Origin: an uncultured Planctomycetia bacterium
Lineage (GTDB): Bacteria; Omnitrophota; Gorgyraeia; Duberdicusellales; 4484-171
DNA: 64,000 bases
Direction: 5' to 3'
Assembly (NCBI GenBank): GCA_964489445.1
Contig: CAZAYU010000001.1
Span: forward strand, 442,480 to 506,479
Shown: piece after piece, positions 5,204 through 41,450 of the stretch
Layout: each line of letters starts with the position of its first letter
Position numbering within the stretch: position 1 is the stretch's first letter
The notes under the pieces: model-generated
Databases searched by the model: none
Told to the model about the DNA's origin: nothing
What the model saw: only the letters and a program-made list of their open reading frames with translations
Made by a program: the position numbers and the translations under genes

Positions 5204-6388
5204 TTAATAAAGCCCGCTTTTAAAAACTTTTTGCAATATTTTTTTATCTACGGTCAAAGCAAATCTTATAAACCCCTCACCATATTTTCCAAAACCTACA
5301 CCCGGAGTAGCCACAATATTTTTTTTAGTAAGCAAATGCTCTGTAAGTTTTAAAGAAGACCCAAAGCAAGAAGGAATTCTAGCCCAAACATAAAATGTAG
5401 AGCTGGCATAGATATCTTTAAAACCATTTTCTTTCAAATTTCTCACAAAGAAATCTCTTCTTTCCTTAAATATTTTTCTTAACTCGCAAACATACTGCTG
5501 TTCGTTCTCTAAAGCAGCCACCCCTGCTTCTTGCACTGCTTGGAAAACACCTGAATCAATATTTCCTTTTACTTTTAAAAGTGTTTTTATTAAGTTCTTG
5601 TTTCCTGCTGCCCAACCAACCCTAAAACCAGTCATGCAAAATGTTTTAGAAAGTGAATGAAACTCAATTGCCACTTCTTTAGCTCCATTTACTTCAAGTA
5701 TGCTATGAGGCTTATCTTTAAAGTATATTTCTGAATAAGCATTATCATAGGCAATAATGATACCGTATTTTACACAAAATTTAACTACATCTTCCATAAA
5801 CCGCAAGGAAGCTAGTGAGGTGGTCGGATTGTTAGGGTAATTTAAATAAATTATTTTTGCTTTGTTGCGCACTGAAACAGGAATTTTGTTTAATTCCGGT
5901 AAAAACAAATTCGTTTCTAAAAGAGGCATCTCATAAATTTTTGCTCCGGAAAAAATAGCCGCACCGCGATACCCTGGATATCCAGGAGAAGGAATAATGA
6001 CATAATCACCGGGGTTAACAAATCCTAAAGGAAAGTGCACTAGCCCCTCTTTCGAGCCGATCAACGGCAAAATTTCTTCGTTCTCATTTAAAATGACCTT
6101 AAATCTCTTTTGGGACCATTTTTTTATTGATTTTCGAAATCCTAAGTGTCCTTGGTCTAAAGCATACTTCTGATTTTCTTTCTTTTTCGCTGCAGAAAAT
6201 AAAACTTTGCATACATTTGAAGGAGTAAGAATATCCGGATCCCCAATACTTAAATCAATGAATTTAACACCTTTGCTTTTAAGCTTTGACTTTGTTTTAT
6301 CAATTTCTGCAAATAAATAAGGTGGCAATTTTTTTAAACGCTCTGATATTTCAAAATTACTCATGTTTATCCTTTTTTTTATTTTCAA
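5204..6388 (-). CDS. dapL: LL-diaminopimelate aminotransferase (class I aminotransferase)
   Basis: The N-terminus LKKLPPYLFAEIDKTKSKL is typical of DapL. It has a PLP-aminotransferase fold and sits inside the dapB/dapA/dapF/lysA cluster. Confidence 0.65.
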   Translation of the reverse strand: MKIKKRINMSNFEISERLKKLPPYLFAEIDKTKSKLKSKGVKFIDLSIGDPDILTPSNVCKVLFSAAKKKENQKYALDQGHLGFRKSIKKWSQKRFKVILNENEEILPLIGSKEGLVHFPLGFVNPGDYVIIPSPGYPGYRGAAIFSGAKIYEMPLLETNLFLPELNKIPVSVRNKAKIIYLNYPNNPTTSLASLRFMEDVVKFCVKYGIIIAYDNAYSEIYFKDKPHSILEVNGAKEVAIEFHSLSKTFCMTGFRVGWAAGNKNLIKTLLKVKGNIDSGVFQAVQEAGVAALENEQQYVCELRKIFKERRDFFVRNLKENGFKDIYASSTFYVWARIPSCFGSSLKLTEHLLTKKNIVATPGVGFGKYGEGFIRFALTVDKKILQKVFKSGLY

Positions 6389-29589: not shown

Positions 29590-29730
29590 TACCCCTCGTT
29601 ATTGGTTAAATAATTAGTAGTTTTTATGATTAAAGATTACAAGATAAGAAATAATCATATCGTCTATCTTCCATCATCTATCGTCCATCGTTTTTTCACT
29701 TACCCCTTAATCCTTATCTCTTAATCCTAC
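29590..29730 (-). repeat. Purine-rich leader repeat carrying GATGGACGA / GATGATGGAAGATAG motifs, upstream of pgpA
   Basis: Minus-sense strand reads CGATGGACGATAGATGATGGAAGATAGACGATATG. It belongs to the same family as the 45.2, 59.9 and 62.5 kb leaders. Confidence 0.4.
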
Positions 29731-29770
29731 ATTATCCATCTTCCACCTTGAAGGTGGCAATTGGTTTTTC
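29731..29770 (-). repeat. 40-nt palindromic-core repeat, copy A, between pgsA and pgpA
   Basis: Sequence ATTATCCATCTTCCACCTTGAAGGTGGCAATTGGTTTTTC. It differs from copies B and C only by two single-T indels and contains the palindrome CCACCTTGAAGGTGG. Confidence 0.6.
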
Positions 29771-29774
29771 CAAT

Positions 29775-30341
29775 TTAAAACGTTCGAATTGACCGACGAT
29801 TTGCCCAGAAATAATAAATTCCAGAGTATAAAGTTATAGCCACGATGTACCACATCAAAATCGGAATAAGTGTTTGTTGCAAAAAATAAACTGCCCGGCT
29901 TCCAGGAAAAATCCTAGACAAAATAAGTGAAATTAGAATCATAAAAGCTCCAATAATCTGAGAAAGAGTCTTATGCTTTCCCAAGCTTCTTGCTTCTAAA
30001 ACTACTCCCTTATTTAGGCTATACAATCGCAACCCAGTAACTACAAATTCTCTGAGCATTATCACACTGACCATCCAGGCATTAATAATTCCTAATTGCA
30101 AAAAAGCACAAAACACCCCGATGATTAATATCTTATCAGCAATCGGATCTAAAAGCTTCCCTAAGTCCGAAGTTAAGTTATGCTTTCTAGCTAAAAATCC
30201 ATCAAAAAAGTCAGTTACCGAAGCAAGCGAAAAAACTACAAGAGCTAGTATAGTCGATAAAAAACTATTCTTTATAATCAGTCCAATACAGATAAATGCT
30301 AGTAATATTCGTAAAATAGTCAGCTTATTAGGAGTATTCAT
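29775..30341 (-). CDS. pgsA: CDP-diacylglycerol--glycerol-3-phosphate 3-phosphatidyltransferase
   Basis: DFFDGFLARKHNLTSDLGKLLDPIADK motif is present, and the protein is 188 aa. Confidence 0.85.
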   Translation of the reverse strand: MNTPNKLTILRILLAFICIGLIIKNSFLSTILALVVFSLASVTDFFDGFLARKHNLTSDLGKLLDPIADKILIIGVFCAFLQLGIINAWMVSVIMLREFVVTGLRLYSLNKGVVLEARSLGKHKTLSQIIGAFMILISLILSRIFPGSRAVYFLQQTLIPILMWYIVAITLYSGIYYFWANRRSIRTF

Positions 30342-37377: not shown

Positions 37378-38685
37378 TTATAAAAGATACATATCCTCTG
37401 CCTCTTTTAGCAAGTGCTCCCGAAATTTAGGATGAGCAATGCTAATAATTGCCAACGCCCTTTCTTTGGTTGATTTTCCTTTTAAATTAACTACGCCATA
37501 TTCAGTAACCAAATAATGAGTGTCAGCCCGAGGAGTAGTTATCACCGCACCCTCTTTAAAGCGCGGAACTATCCGAGATATTTCTCCTCCCTTAGCTGTA
37601 GAATAAAAAGCTAATATAGACTTTCCACCTGGAGAATCAAATGCCCCACGGACAAAATCAAGCTGACCACCGGTACCGCTAAACGTACTTCCGTCTAAAG
37701 ATTCTGCATTAGCCTGCCCCAATAAATCAATCTCTAGAACTGAATTAATTGAAACCATATTATTATTCTTAGCAATTACTGCCGGCAAACAAACATAAGA
37801 AGCAGAATAACTTTCCATGCTTGGATTGTTATTCATAAAATCATACATCTTTTTAGTTCCTCCGGCTGTTGTATACACATGCTTCATAGGATGTAACTTT
37901 TTCTTACGTCCGGTAATTACTCCTTTTTTTATTAAATCAATCATCCCATCTGTTAGCAGCTCAGTATGAATTCCTAAATCCTTATGCTTTGTAAGATAAC
38001 GTGTAACCGCATTAGGTAGTCCTCCTATTCCCAGCTGAATGGTTGCACCATTGGGAATCATCTCTGCCAAACAAGGGCCGATAATTTCATCTTCCGGTTT
38101 AGGTTGAGGTGGTTTTAATTCTAAAAGCGGAACATGATTTTCAACTACCGCATCTACTTCAGAAATATGCAAAAGAGATTCGCCGAAAACGCGCGGCATA
38201 TTTTCATTTACTTCTACAATGAGCCTTCGGCAATGTCTAGCTGCAGTAGAAGTGGCATCGTTAGCCGTACCAAAGGTAAAATAACCATAATCATCCATTG
38301 GAGATACAGTAGTAACTGCTGTATCTATTTCCATAAAATCCTTGCACATCCTCGGAACCTGATGAAGATAAGACGGTACATAGTAATTAAGCCCTGTCCT
38401 AACTAACCCTCTCTCCGCACTTCCAACAAACCAAGAATAGCCTTCAATACAATCACATAGTCCTGGATCAAACACTGTTTTCATGGCGTGTTCTAAAGGA
38501 AGAAATGCATAAATTTTAATCTTCTTCAAATTACCTTCCCTGGCTCGGTTAGCAATAGCTTCTAATAAAGCCGGAGGCTGAGCAACACTCATTCCACAAA
38601 CAACAGTTTCTCCATTATTAATTCCAGATACAGCTTTTGAGGGAGAAGTTAATTTTTTCTGATATTCAGAAACAAAAAAGCTCAT
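37378..38685 (-). CDS. Acetyl-CoA hydrolase/transferase family protein (4-hydroxybutyrate / short-chain acyl-CoA:acetate CoA-transferase-like)
   Basis: A 435-aa AcetylCoA_hydro/transferase fold is present on the basis of overall similarity. Confidence 0.75.
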   Translation of the reverse strand: MSFFVSEYQKKLTSPSKAVSGINNGETVVCGMSVAQPPALLEAIANRAREGNLKKIKIYAFLPLEHAMKTVFDPGLCDCIEGYSWFVGSAERGLVRTGLNYYVPSYLHQVPRMCKDFMEIDTAVTTVSPMDDYGYFTFGTANDATSTAARHCRRLIVEVNENMPRVFGESLLHISEVDAVVENHVPLLELKPPQPKPEDEIIGPCLAEMIPNGATIQLGIGGLPNAVTRYLTKHKDLGIHTELLTDGMIDLIKKGVITGRKKKLHPMKHVYTTAGGTKKMYDFMNNNPSMESYSASYVCLPAVIAKNNNMVSINSVLEIDLLGQANAESLDGSTFSGTGGQLDFVRGAFDSPGGKSILAFYSTAKGGEISRIVPRFKEGAVITTPRADTHYLVTEYGVVNLKGKSTKERALAIISIAHPKFREHLLKEAEDMYLL

Positions 38686-38722
38686 AATTTTACTCCTTTA
38701 TTCTAAAAGCAGTGCCTGCTAA

Positions 38723-38941
38723 TTACTCTTTTTTTTCAGAAATATTTTCAAATTCTTTAACGATCTTTTTAACTTCTAGCTCTGTTGACTCAATCTTCTC
38801 CCGGCAAATCCTTATTAGCTCTACTGCCCGTTTTGTTTTTACCGACACCTCATCAACTCCGGTTTTTTCTGATTCTAAGCCCTCTAATATTTCGTTCAAC
38901 TCTTCAATTGCTTCAGTATATTTTACCTCTTTTTTTGCCAT
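38723..38941 (-). CDS. xseB: Exodeoxyribonuclease VII small subunit
   Basis: MAKKEVKYTEAIEELNEILEGLESEKTGVDE... is a 72-aa protein that starts at the internal ATG with SD AAGGAGG. The upstream 25 codons in the ORF track are a spurious read-through of repeat B. Confidence 0.75.
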   Translation of the reverse strand: MAKKEVKYTEAIEELNEILEGLESEKTGVDEVSVKTKRAVELIRICREKIESTELEVKKIVKEFENISEKKE

Positions 38942-38959
38942 TTTTTCCTCCTTAATGAG

Positions 38960-38999
38960 ATTATTCCATCTTCCACCTTGAAGGTGGCAATTTGGTTTT
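38960..38999 (-). repeat. 40-nt palindromic-core repeat, copy B, 18 nt upstream of the xseB start
   Basis: Sequence ATTATTCCATCTTCCACCTTGAAGGTGGCAATTTGGTTTT, identical over 40 nt to copy C. Confidence 0.65.
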
Positions 39000-39031
39000 C
39001 CCCTTGCGAATAGCATTTTTATTATTAAATT

Positions 39032-40006
39032 CTACCGCAAAAGATTTAGAATAACTTTTATCATCATACTTTTTTCCTTTGGCCGGCTAGAAGCAATCAT
39101 CAGCGTAAGCCCCACCAAAGCATTATCATCGATAATCTTGCGGCCATCTTTTCCATATAGAATACCGCATTTCTCTAGAAAACAAACAAATAAAGCAGCA
39201 GCTATACGTTTATTCCCGTCGACAAAGCTATGATTTTTAACTACAAAATACAATAAATGTGCTGCTTTCTCCTGAATCGTAGAATATACATCGACTCCCC
39301 TAAAAGTCTGATAAATTGCCCCTATCGAACTTTTAAAACTGCTATCTTTTTCTTGGCCTACAAGATCTGAATCATTAAACTTTTCTTTCAATACATTAAT
39401 AATCGCTTTAGCTTTTTCATAAGTAAAATTGTATTTAAAGTGTTTGACTCCCTTGGGAACTTTTAAACGCTCGTGATCATAATCATCAAGGATACCTAAA
39501 GCACGTGTATAATCAGATATCACCCGAATAATGCCCTTCGCTTCGTTAGATAAACCAACAAACGATTCAACATTTTTGATCAGTGCTATGGCTTTTTGTA
39601 ATTCTTCGTATTTATCAGCACTTTTAGCAAGACGTTTCTCATTGATTGTATATCCGTCAACTAAATGCTTGCGTAACATATTAGTCGCCCAAATACGAAA
39701 TTGAGTACCCCTCTTGGAATTAACGCGATAACCAACAGAAATAATCATATCTAGGTTATAAAATTGTATTTTATATGTCTTTCCATCTGAAGCAGTATGT
39801 GCAAATTTTGCACATACTGAATTCTCATGTAATTCCTTTGTTTTAAACACATTATGTATATGTTTCGTTATAACGCTTCGCTCAACATTGAATAAAACAG
39901 CTATATGTTTTTGACTAAGCCAGACAGTTTCAGCCTTTAATCGGACTTCGACATTATGCTTGTATAGAATTACTTGCCCTCTGGAACTTTCTTTTTCTTT
40001 CACCAT
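39032..40006 (-). CDS. RhuM-family N-terminal domain fused to a Fic/Doc-fold domain (Doc-type motif HxFxDGNKR)
   Basis: The N-terminus matches the RhuM family (ILYKHNVEVRL...NSVCAKFAHTASDGKTYKIQFYNLDMIISVGYRVNSKRGTQFRIWAT). The C-terminal part carries HSFVDGNKRIAAALF. Confidence 0.7.
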   Translation of the reverse strand: MVKEKESSRGQVILYKHNVEVRLKAETVWLSQKHIAVLFNVERSVITKHIHNVFKTKELHENSVCAKFAHTASDGKTYKIQFYNLDMIISVGYRVNSKRGTQFRIWATNMLRKHLVDGYTINEKRLAKSADKYEELQKAIALIKNVESFVGLSNEAKGIIRVISDYTRALGILDDYDHERLKVPKGVKHFKYNFTYEKAKAIINVLKEKFNDSDLVGQEKDSSFKSSIGAIYQTFRGVDVYSTIQEKAAHLLYFVVKNHSFVDGNKRIAAALFVCFLEKCGILYGKDGRKIIDDNALVGLTLMIASSRPKEKSMMIKVILNLLR

Positions 40007-40067
40007 AATACTTTTTTACTCACCCACGCTAAATTTTATGTTTTTCGTCAGAAAAACATCTAGTCGA

Positions 40068-40107
40068 ATTATTCCATCTTCCACCTTGAAGGTGGCAATT
40101 TGGTTTT
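40068..40107 (-). repeat. 40-nt palindromic-core repeat, copy C, 5 nt downstream of the xseA stop
   Basis: Sequence ATTATTCCATCTTCCACCTTGAAGGTGGCAATTTGGTTTT, a direct repeat of copy B lying 1108 bp away. Confidence 0.65.
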
Positions 40108-40112
40108 TCTTC

Positions 40113-41450
40113 TTATGCACTTTGCTTTCTTTCTACTGTCGACTCTACGTTCCCCTTATAAAAAACAGTGGTCAGTCGGTCTCCTTTTTCAATATCCTTG
40201 ATTGAAGCCACTGCTTTTTTCCCTTTAAGGGTAATCGAGTAGCCTCTTTTCAACACATTAACCGGATCTAATATTTTTATTTTCCCCTCTAAATATTCAA
40301 GGTGCTCTCGACAATGTTGGGGCAATTTAGTTACTGTCGAGGTTAACTTTTCCCAGCTTCTTTTGAGGAAATCTTTTTCATCTTTTAGAATGATATTTAC
40401 ACAAGCAACGATCTTATGCTTTTTTTCTAAAATTTCTTCGCGATGAATCCGAAAAAAACGAAAAGAAGCCGATTCAATCTTTACTGTTAAATTTTCTAAA
40501 TGTTTCTTTTTATTCATCAGTAACCCCTGAGCGTTACTTACTATTTTTTCTTCCAGATAGTTTAAATTTTCCGACACCTCTCTGATTATCTCTACTAAAA
40601 ACTGCCCAGCTTTTGTGGGAGTCTTGCAAACGGTGTGCGCAACTAAATCAGTAATTGTTGTATTAATCTCATGGCCTAAAGCAGAAATAACCGGTAACTT
40701 AGATGCAGCTATGCTTTCTGCTATTTTTTGACTATCAAAATAGCTTAAATCAGCAGTTGATCCGCCTCCGCGAGTTATAACAATAACATCTATCTTTTCC
40801 TTTGCTTCATCATTAAAATACCCCAAAGCCCCCATAACATCTTTCTCCACAAGATTACCCTGCATATGGCAATTACAAGCTAACACCTTAAAACTAAATC
40901 CACTTATCTTAAGTTCATTAGTAAAATCATGATACGCTGCCGATGAAGAGGAAGTTATCAATCCCACTCTCAACGGTAATTGTGGAATCACCAACTGCTT
41001 ATTTTTTTCTAAAAGGCCTTTTCTTTTAAGCTCCTCAATTATTTTTTGCCGGCTTTGGGCCATTTTCCCTAGAGTGTATACCGGATCAATATCTGAGACA
41101 ATCAAGCTAAAATTACCATTCTTAGGATATAAATCCACATCACACAATAATTTAACTTCAATATCATTACGTAGTTCTAATCCGGACGCGGATTCTTTAA
41201 GCCGCTTTAAAATCTGAAATTTTCGGCCTTGAAAAATTGCGGCACTTACTTTAGCTAAAACTTGATCAGCATCTGGATCTTTCTGAACGAAATTAAAATA
41301 AATGTGTTTGCGATCTCTGCTCATCCGCAAATCCTGAATCTCCCCGCACACCCAGACACTGCTAGAAAACTTATCTTTTATCAGTTTTCTGACTGTTGTG
41401 TTTAGCTCTAATACCGTATAAACTTTATTAATTTCAAAAAGACTATCCAC
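40113..41450 (-). CDS. xseA: Exodeoxyribonuclease VII large subunit
   Basis: An N-terminal OB fold (VWVCGEIQDL) precedes the ExoVII large-subunit catalytic region, over 445 aa. Confidence 0.85.
   Translation of the reverse strand: MDSLFEINKVYTVLELNTTVRKLIKDKFSSSVWVCGEIQDLRMSRDRKHIYFNFVQKDPDADQVLAKVSAAIFQGRKFQILKRLKESASGLELRNDIEVKLLCDVDLYPKNGNFSLIVSDIDPVYTLGKMAQSRQKIIEELKRKGLLEKNKQLVIPQLPLRVGLITSSSSAAYHDFTNELKISGFSFKVLACNCHMQGNLVEKDVMGALGYFNDEAKEKIDVIVITRGGGSTADLSYFDSQKIAESIAASKLPVISALGHEINTTITDLVAHTVCKTPTKAGQFLVEIIREVSENLNYLEEKIVSNAQGLLMNKKKHLENLTVKIESASFRFFRIHREEILEKKHKIVACVNIILKDEKDFLKRSWEKLTSTVTKLPQHCREHLEYLEGKIKILDPVNVLKRGYSITLKGKKAVASIKDIEKGDRLTTVFYKGNVESTVERKQSA

Follow-up and report, generated by a model that had tools for sequence, protein, structure and literature searches.

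A RhuM–Doc fusion gene inserted between xseA and xseB in an Omnitrophota genome, with a covarying palindrome in its coding sequence

We describe a gene in a 64,000-nucleotide (nt) stretch of contig CAZAYU010000001.1, the whole of which we call the window. The gene (RhuM-Doc, 39032..40006, minus strand) encodes the N-terminal module of the RhuM family (RhuM-N) followed by a helical linker and a Doc-type Fic domain, and it sits in a recent 1108-bp insertion, bounded by a 40-nt repeat of a dispersed family, between xseA and xseB. On balance, we favor the reading that its product is a self-contained toxin or abortive-infection protein in which RhuM-N would act as the sensor and the Doc domain as a kinase that blocks translation. 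Such a single-chain protein fits the data because the Doc site is intact and conserved, there is no antitoxin gene, the N-terminal module is combined with other C-termini elsewhere, and members of the family recur among restriction-modification (R-M) genes. The protein is one more member of a very large, named family of defence candidates without biochemical characterization; the parts of the analysis most worth attention are the insertion polymorphism within a population and, above all, a covarying palindrome inside the gene.

RhuM-N module, linker and Doc-type Fic domain

The open reading frame (ORF) at this position had been picked out by an earlier reading of the sequence (the original prediction), and we found it to be real: the two peptides that had been quoted, NSVCAKFAHTAS...FRIWAT and HSFVDGNKRIAAALF, lie at residues 62-108 and 259-273 of its 324-residue translation. 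The gene and the parts of its product map as follows.

39032..40006, minus strand: RhuM-N/Doc fusion gene; ATG start, 324 amino acids; member of the PADLOC candidate family PDC-S23
39617..39991, minus strand: RhuM-N module, about residues 6-130 (from BLASTP to Salmonella RhuM and the AlphaFold model)
39434..39616, minus strand: helical linker, residues 131-191, with predicted helices 123-146 and 154-174 (from conservation in 120 homologs and the AlphaFold2 model)
39035..39433, minus strand: Doc-fold Fic domain, residues 192-324 (from Foldseek to P1 Doc, PHROG 577 and PDB 9vzc)
39206..39232, minus strand: catalytic motif H259-S-F-V-D-G-N-K266-R267, of the Doc type HxFx(D/N)(A/G)NKR (read in the sequence)

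The original prediction had assigned the N-terminus to the RhuM family and the C-terminus to the Fic/Doc fold, and both Pfam families score over their gathering cut-offs. Virulence_RhuM (PF13310) matches residues 63-148 with E 2.8e-25 and 89.5 bits against a cut-off of 33.7, at model positions 1-92 of 252 alone; canonical RhuM proteins (Salmonella, Wolbachia phage WO, Streptococcus satellite) match model positions 1-250. By BLASTP, the protein is 38% identical to the founding RhuM, Salmonella STM3755, over residues 6-170, and beyond this the two proteins are unrelated. In STM3755, Pfam finds the RhuM model only, and the C-terminal half has no BLASTP similarity to the Doc domain. Since both matches are partial, the protein is a RhuM-N module fused to Doc and not a full RhuM; the family assignment therefore stands for the N-terminal module, which is all that is shared with Salmonella RhuM, and does not extend to a whole RhuM protein. 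The same module is found with other C-termini in other proteins, and the PADLOC hidden Markov models (HMMs) for PDC-S05 (RhuM) match the N-terminal part of the RhuM-Doc protein alone. Thus, Salmonella RhuM, encoded in Salmonella pathogenicity island 3, and PDC-S05 share a homologous N-module with RhuM-Doc and differ from it in the C-terminal half, which Doc replaces here. One GenBank record labels the Salmonella rhuM gene (STM3755; L109 1480-2502) as 'toxin-antitoxin system, toxin component, Fic family'.

When the N-terminal part was modeled separately, the predicted structure contained strands within residues 11-22, helices 32-38 and 43-55 forming a helix-turn-helix (HTH), a beta-hairpin (65-71/77-83), and long helices over residues 85-117. 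The predicted local distance difference test (pLDDT) for residues 30-110 is 85-94 over this model and that of the whole protein (below). Foldseek with this part returned weak matches (E of at least 0.06) to the winged helices of TFIIE/TFE, MarR/SlyA, and PadR. From these models, a winged-helix-like fold is reasonable but not proven for RhuM-N, and the module would presumably bind nucleic acid. In the linker, helix 154-174 carries the invariant residues Y166, A169, and L173, and an invariant D177 lies just past the helix, which makes the linker a candidate cis-inhibitory or coupling element.

In the C-terminal region, the Pfam Fic profile (PF02661) matches residues 194-277 with E 2.8e-11 and is covered at positions 2-93 of 93, with a score of 44.6 bits where the cut-off is 24, and the PHROG 577 'Doc-like toxin' profile matches the protein with E 9e-16. 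The sole solved relative found by sequence is PDB 9vzc, 'Death-on-curing family protein' (E 1.4e-6). We aligned 120 database homologs with 64-84% identity to the RhuM-Doc protein and gave this alignment as input to AlphaFold2; the resulting model has a mean pLDDT of 73 and a predicted template modeling score (pTM) of 0.49, with pLDDT of 85-91 for residues 30-110, about 77-90 across most of residues 190-324 (about 80-90 in the Doc domain), and poor values for residues 1-24 and the linker. The best Foldseek matches of the model in the PDB are structures of P1 Doc (3k33_A, 3dd7_A, and 3kh2_A; probability 1.00, target TM-score 0.64-0.74, root-mean-square deviation 3.1-4.6 Å), and for 3k33_A and 3dd7_A alone the target TM-score is 0.69-0.74 and the deviation 3.1-3.5. 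The C-terminal region is thus modeled as a Fic/Doc fold and not outside it. Taken together, the profiles and the model indicate a complete Doc-type Fic domain in the C-terminal 130 residues.

The motif itself reads HSF[VI]DGNKR in 119 of the 120 homologs and RSFVDGNKR in the remaining one, so that H259 is conserved in 119/120; S260, F261, D263, G264, N265, K266, and R267 are invariant. A lysine, not a glycine, precedes the motif arginine in all 120, and a lysine in place of the second glycine of HPFx[DE]GNGR is what separates Doc kinases from AMPylases, according to Castro-Roa 2013 and Cruz 2014 as they are cited in PMC6529018. These data uphold the earlier assignment of the motif HSFVDGNKR to the Doc type rather than the AMPylating type. 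RhuM-Doc and P1 Doc therefore have the same fold, as modeled, and the same HxFxDGNKR type of motif; they differ in that RhuM-Doc has no Phd-type antitoxin gene and that its Doc domain stands behind about 190 residues of RhuM-N module and linker.

The insertion between xseA and xseB

The gene and the repeats around it lie between the two genes for exodeoxyribonuclease VII. The features of the locus are as follows.

40113..41450, minus strand: xseA, exodeoxyribonuclease VII large subunit, upstream flank (Pfam tRNA_anti_2 and Exonuc_VII_L)
40068..40107, no strand: left (xseA-side) copy of the 40-nt direct repeat, with hairpin core CCACCTT(C/G)AAGGTGG
39000..40067, no strand: unique sequence of the insertion, 1068 bp (inserted unit of 1108 bp when one repeat copy is counted)
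38960..38999, no strand: right (xseB-side) copy of the 40-nt direct repeat; the two copies are 100% identical
38723..38941, minus strand: xseB, exodeoxyribonuclease VII small subunit, downstream flank (Pfam Exonuc_VII_S)
29730..29772, no strand: third, slightly diverged copy of the repeat, just downstream of a CDP-alcohol phosphatidyltransferase gene

From shuffled sequence, 0 matches are expected for a perfect direct repeat of 40 nt. The identical RhuM-Doc protein is present on 14 contigs, and in 14/14 the order is xseA, RhuM-Doc, xseB. On a contig from a sister metagenome (L014, JGI 3300024048), we found the empty site: the xseA stop codon is followed by 5 nt, a single repeat copy, 18 nt, and the xseB ATG, and the flanks (342 nt and 1956 nt) are 100% identical to the window. 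The gene is thus the only cargo of a repeat-flanked insertion, as had been claimed. In the nearest relatives examined (L111 and L112), xseA is followed directly by xseB, rpsO, and pnp, and the occupied state is therefore the derived one. The locus is a clean natural case of otherwise identical genomes that differ by the gain or loss of one toxin-like gene. Many contigs (L003, L004, L006, L007, and L009) break at or inside the repeat: L004 stops precisely where the repeat does, L009 stops after 30 nt of it, and L007 begins one base into it. These breaks suggest the coexistence in the samples of the occupied and the empty allele, or of several strains.

Inside the repeats, the ORF is flanked by non-coding unique sequence of 61 nt upstream and 32 nt downstream, and these spacers leave no room for a second gene on its strand. 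An adjacent co-transcribed antitoxin gene, the mark of a type II system such as Phd/Doc, is absent from the insert, which agrees with the original prediction that no Phd-like antitoxin ORF accompanies the gene. A scan for promoters gave nothing promoter-like in the 61 nt upstream of the ORF; for this reason the gene is probably read through from xseA and co-transcribed with both xseA and xseB. The duplication of the repeat leaves the ribosome-binding site of xseB intact, and the repeat hairpin is terminator-like on the non-coding strand only.

Beyond the third copy in the window, a fourth copy of the repeat lies on another contig of the same metagenome (L021/L022); these two copies show that the repeat belongs to a dispersed family and did not arise as a target-site duplication when the gene was inserted. 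A scan of the genome contigs with the 22-nt repeat core gave no match, and a scan of the metagenome gave one further site, on two contigs. A second motif (…CACTTACCCCTTAATCCTTATCTCTTAATCCT) stands beside the repeat at 29.7 kb (29690-29775) and flanks the L021 copy (5960-6140) on either side. The 40-nt hairpin repeat looks like part of a larger intergenic family of this Omnitrophota genome, of the kind of repetitive extragenic palindromic (REP) sequences or miniature inverted-repeat transposable elements (MITEs). Most likely, the incoming DNA brought its own copy of the dispersed repeat and recombined with the copy in the xseA-xseB spacer.

In L015, L018, L019, and L020, the homologs are not flanked by direct repeats of at least 11 nt, and no homolog locus contains the hairpin core. 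The repeat as a general cassette site of the RhuM-Doc family is therefore ruled out. Nucleotide homology to the closest homolog loci ends within about 11 nt of the ORF ends, and since it stops at the ORF borders there is no conserved mobile-element backbone. The insertion shows that such genes move as bare ORFs into housekeeping operons, outside islands, where island-based discovery misses them. No recombinase was identified, and no general recombinase survey of the window was made. At the locus of an 82%-identical homolog, a Y1 (IS200/RAYT-like) transposase gene lies 23 nt away on the opposite strand (L015 5993-6523, minus strand); a counterpart of this transposase has no match in the window.

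The locus resembles integron cassettes and Campbell-type insertions in that a single gene without a promoter-like site has a hairpin site on each side and the empty site has one copy. It differs from integron cassettes in that the window has no integrase or attI, the repeat is a dispersed intergenic element, and the homolog loci lack it; attC sites are also far longer than 40 nt. An integron cassette, which would need an attC site together with an integron integrase and an attI platform, does not fit these features.

All named relatives of the host XseA protein are from Omnitrophota, the best at 62% identity, and by this measure the host is an uncultured environmental Omnitrophota bacterium. 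The closest homologs of the RhuM-Doc protein are 82-84% identical to it, compared with at most 62% for XseA, which fits recent horizontal transfer; the GC content of the gene is like that of the host. In the same operon region, an acetyl-CoA hydrolase/transferase gene (37378-38685, minus strand) lies between xseB and rpsO. Since rpsO and pnp come straight after xseB in L111 and L112, the hydrolase/transferase gene is probably a further insertion specific to this lineage.

A covarying palindrome in the RhuM-N coding region

Within the part of the gene that encodes RhuM-N, we found a 27-nt perfect palindrome, the sole long palindrome in the gene.

39793..39819, no strand: palindrome CAGTATGTGCAAA-A-TTTGCACATACTG, with 13-nt arms, coding for residues 63-72 (SVCAKFAHTA)

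The palindrome lies exactly where the match to the Pfam RhuM model begins, and in nucleotide comparisons it was first seen as a short inverted self-match at the same place in every homolog. We examined its equivalents at the matching codons in loci L015-L110 and L113-L192. Across phyla, plasmids, and viral contigs, the palindromic form is retained, and the peptides that it codes for vary with its sequence (SVCAKFAHTA, SVVAKNATTA, SVCSILEHTA, ATIRKFRIVQ, ATTEESSVVQ, and SVVKECLTTA). To compare with what the protein sequence alone would give, the same peptides were re-encoded with synonymous codons: in 71 loci, mean complementarity of the arms is 11.3 of 13 positions as compared to 8.3 expected, with p <= 0.05 in 62 of the 71. 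When 65 distinct homologs are aligned without gaps, 89.3% of cells pair, as compared to 63.6% after shuffling and 25-38% with the partner slid. The covariation score is 0.71 versus 0.225, and 0 of 500 shuffles reach it. Double-sided changes occur at 11 of the 13 pairs, and stem pairs 2-11 are 96.4% Watson-Crick.

The palindrome is also present outside the fusion genes. Salmonella rhuM carries it with 12-bp arms, near-perfect versions are found in a Streptococcus satellite and in a Bacteroides plasmid gene, and in phage WO it is degenerate. An independent sample from viral contigs, with 22 distinct sequences, has a mean complementarity of 11.5 of 13. Nucleotide-level selection for a hairpin or symmetric site within the RhuM-N coding region is thus well supported by these sequence comparisons. 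We put forward, with some reserve and as a proposal that could well fail, that all RhuM-N genes (RhuM-Doc, Salmonella rhuM, and the phage-borne copies) carry a selected 27-nt palindrome at about codons 63-72, perhaps an undescribed cis-element that controls toxin or defence genes without antitoxins. Our literature search found no paper that pairs RhuM with a palindrome, inverted repeat, stem-loop, or hairpin, and a search of Rfam with 38600-40300 gave no family at E <= 1.

Several roles are candidates. Folded as an RNA hairpin, the palindrome has a free energy of –20.4 kcal/mol (z –4.9), and it could act as an mRNA or single-stranded DNA hairpin; the stem mismatches (11 G.T versus 6 A.C) do not decide between RNA and DNA. 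One candidate role is that of an mRNA element that limits expression of a toxin without an antitoxin. A second is a symmetric DNA site for the protein's own winged helix, in analogy to the lambda O protein, whose binding sites lie within the gene that encodes it. We found no additional copies of the palindrome arm close to the genes, where they would have pointed to promoter operators; one-mismatch matches are few, non-palindromic, and at the level of chance. A third candidate is a structure recognized in recombination or replication. Template-switch 'correction' of quasi-palindromes is known from work on replication errors and could help to maintain the perfection of the palindrome; it would not explain retention across phyla. 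The palindrome is a testable candidate for the missing control element, and what is learned from it may apply to every RhuM-family gene, including those of pathogens.

Family, neighborhoods and proposed function

The RhuM-Doc protein matches PADLOC PDC-S23 over nearly its full length. HMM PDLC04965 aligns residues 17-323 with profile positions 17-323 of 327 (E 4.1e-127), and PDLC04963 (E 5.9e-119) and PDLC04964 (E 3.7e-110) each cover almost the whole protein and the whole profile. A protein database search gave at least 8000 matches; the best 120 all carry the RhuM and Fic Pfam pair, and several of them, as well as plasmid homologs, have the NCBI name 'virulence protein RhuM/Fic/DOC family protein'. 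When we scanned one genome per species, at least 532 species had a relative, in phyla that include Omnitrophota, Planctomycetota, Bacteroidota, Desulfobacterota, Verrucomicrobiota, Patescibacteria, Actinomycetota, Bacillota, and Pseudomonadota. Full-length relatives are carried by 16 plasmids, some next to partition and transposon genes, and RhuM-N alone is found on 516 viral contigs as well as in Streptococcus satellites and phage WO. The many phyla, plasmids, and viral contigs support horizontal spread. RhuM-Doc is thus an ordinary member of a large, named family that had been remarked on before and flagged as a defence candidate, and the novelty implied by the original prediction was overstated. 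At the protein level it has the architecture of PDC-S23 without a difference; what differs is that this copy is inserted in the xseA-xseB operon and not embedded in a defence system.

To survey neighborhoods, we called ORFs at 82 homologous loci and clustered all neighbors up to four genes away. HsdS (10 loci), HsdR (7), and HsdM (7) are the neighbor families found in more than 3 of the 82 loci, and there are no others. A subunit of a type I R-M system lies within four genes in 13 of the 82 loci, and in several of these the RhuM-Doc gene stands between hsd genes. In most loci, the homolog is solitary in housekeeping surroundings and the neighbors differ nearly everywhere; on an Omnitrophota chromosome, for example, one homolog lies between pyrR and pyrB, and another lies upstream of the ATP synthase operon. 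No conserved small partner gene is present across the 82 loci, and a minority have unrelated small ORFs or HTH genes. In one locus, an Xre-type HTH_3 gene lies after or overlaps the 3' end of the homolog (L018 1126-1338), and on a Vibrio plasmid a winged-helix HTH_43 gene does so (L024 6938-7213). In this subset of the family, the small HTH gene is possibly a regulator or antitoxin; the locus at 39032-40006 has no such gene.

Previous work points in the same direction as the neighborhoods. Anantharaman et al. 2013 (PMC3710099) noted that in R-M/PrrC loci RhuM-like proteins stand where DOC toxins otherwise would, with frequent fusion to DOC, and proposed a role as toxins. The PDC systems, PDC-S23 among them, are 145 untested candidates found through 'guilt-by-embedding' in R-M, BREX, and DISARM systems (bioRxiv 10.1101/2024.01.29.577857), and with one RhuM-domain system of the single-gene PDC-S05 type in E. 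coli, T7 and T5 plated about 1000-fold less well (bioRxiv 10.1101/2024.09.26.614923). The full-length PDC-S23 match and the type I R-M loci are consistent, at the level of sequence, with the suggestion in the original prediction that the gene is toxin or defence cargo.

We propose the following mechanism. RhuM-Doc would be a cytoplasmic protein of two modules, RhuM-N and a complete Doc-type Fic domain, with the conserved helical linker between them. The Omnitrophota host would have gained the gene horizontally, and recombination at the dispersed 40-nt element would have placed it in the xseA-xseB spacer. In the resting state, the N-module and the linker would hold the Doc domain inactive in cis, which we propose in view of the missing antitoxin gene. 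On sensing a cue that comes from phage or stress, RhuM-N would release the Doc domain, and this domain would then pass a phosphate from ATP to a translation factor, so that protein synthesis would stop; the target of the prototype, P1 Doc, is EF-Tu. Because the family is widespread, highly conserved, and without an antitoxin, it is a good model for how single-chain Doc toxins are silenced.

Several observations weigh against this proposal. The Doc motif by itself does not identify the target, and the NCBIfam model TIGR01550 (DOC_P1) scores 36.5 bits, under its cut-off of 38.65, over residues 230-282 and profile positions 35-89 of 122. Autoinhibition in cis is conjectural since the inter-domain arrangement in the model is unreliable (pTM 0.49, pLDDT 47-67 in the linker). 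The R-M-linked share of the sampled loci is 16%; the window has no hsd or other R-M genes, and the neighbors of RhuM-Doc here (xseA, xseB, glycosyltransferases, rpsO, and pnp) are housekeeping genes and not a defence island. Our literature search found no paper that mentions PDC-S23 and none in which this exact architecture is tested against phage. Finally, the one studied protein described with RhuM and Fic domains, BifA, is reported to act as an effector on host cells, and its study did not show that it phosphorylates directly (PMC6529018).

The gene could instead be a selfish addiction or stabilization module, with a toxin checked by a cis element (the palindrome or hairpin) or by the N-domain and with no anti-phage role, a reading that we consider unlikely. 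It would account for the solitary position of the gene in housekeeping contexts at most loci, for the partition and transposon genes beside plasmid copies, and for a strongly conserved nucleic-acid element inside the gene, and Doc is the toxin of the P1 plasmid-addiction system, as titles of PDB entries state. However, the empty-site allele coexists with the occupied one, with flanks that are identical over the 2.3 kb compared, which points to gain and loss without obvious lethality, and both the enrichment in R-M operons and the anti-phage activity of the RhuM-only PDC-S05 favor defence.

We also regard as doubtful a non-toxic regulator, in which a DNA-binding winged-helix protein would carry a Doc-type domain for the reversible modification of either a host protein or the regulator, for example in the control of DNA damage or translation, with insertion in the exonuclease VII operon by chance. 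The predicted resemblance of the N-module to winged-helix DNA binders and the probable co-transcription with xseA and xseB are consistent with it, and in one locus (L052) the gene upstream of the homolog encodes LexA domains. In contrast to a core regulator, however, RhuM-Doc differs in presence and absence within one population, has a patchy phyletic spread at high identity, and is carried by plasmids and viral contigs, three traits typical of accessory conflict genes; it also has different neighbors at nearly every locus.

It is improbable that the enzyme is an AMPylating Fic protein, or one that transfers another nucleoside monophosphate, instead of a Doc-type kinase. Pfam assigns the domain to the general Fic/DOC family only, and weaker Foldseek matches include FICD/HYPE and IbpA Fic2, which are far lower in quality than those to P1 Doc. 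SoFic (Millman et al. 2022), a standalone AMPylase, is a validated defence protein and, like RhuM-Doc, a single-gene protein of the Fic fold; a passage in a 2026 preprint gives EF-Tu as its AMPylation target. SoFic differs from RhuM-Doc in its Gly-type motif and in the lack of a RhuM-N module. The lysine before the motif arginine in all 120 homologs, together with the fact that the best matches in both sequence and structure are Doc proteins, argues against AMPylation. AMPylating Fic proteins of classes I-III have an inhibitory helix with the motif (S/T)xxxE(G/N), and its near absence from the family argues the same way, since no aligned position shows it in more than 2 of the 120 sequences; the inhibitory helix for which the original prediction had suggested looking was thus not borne out in the form of this motif.

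It is very improbable that RhuM-Doc is secreted as a virulence effector in the way reported for BifA from Streptococcus equi subsp. zooepidemicus: BifA (SeseC_01334) is described with the same two Pfam domains, N-terminal RhuM and C-terminal Fic, and its activity requires the Fic histidine (H247A), but the likeness to RhuM-Doc is taken from domain labels, the host is an uncultured environmental Omnitrophota bacterium, the RhuM-Doc N-terminus is hydrophilic without a signal-peptide-like stretch, and the family is spread through free-living bacteria of many phyla. BifA is further reported to be released, to enter endothelial cells, and to raise the phosphorylation of moesin, possibly indirectly (PMC6529018).

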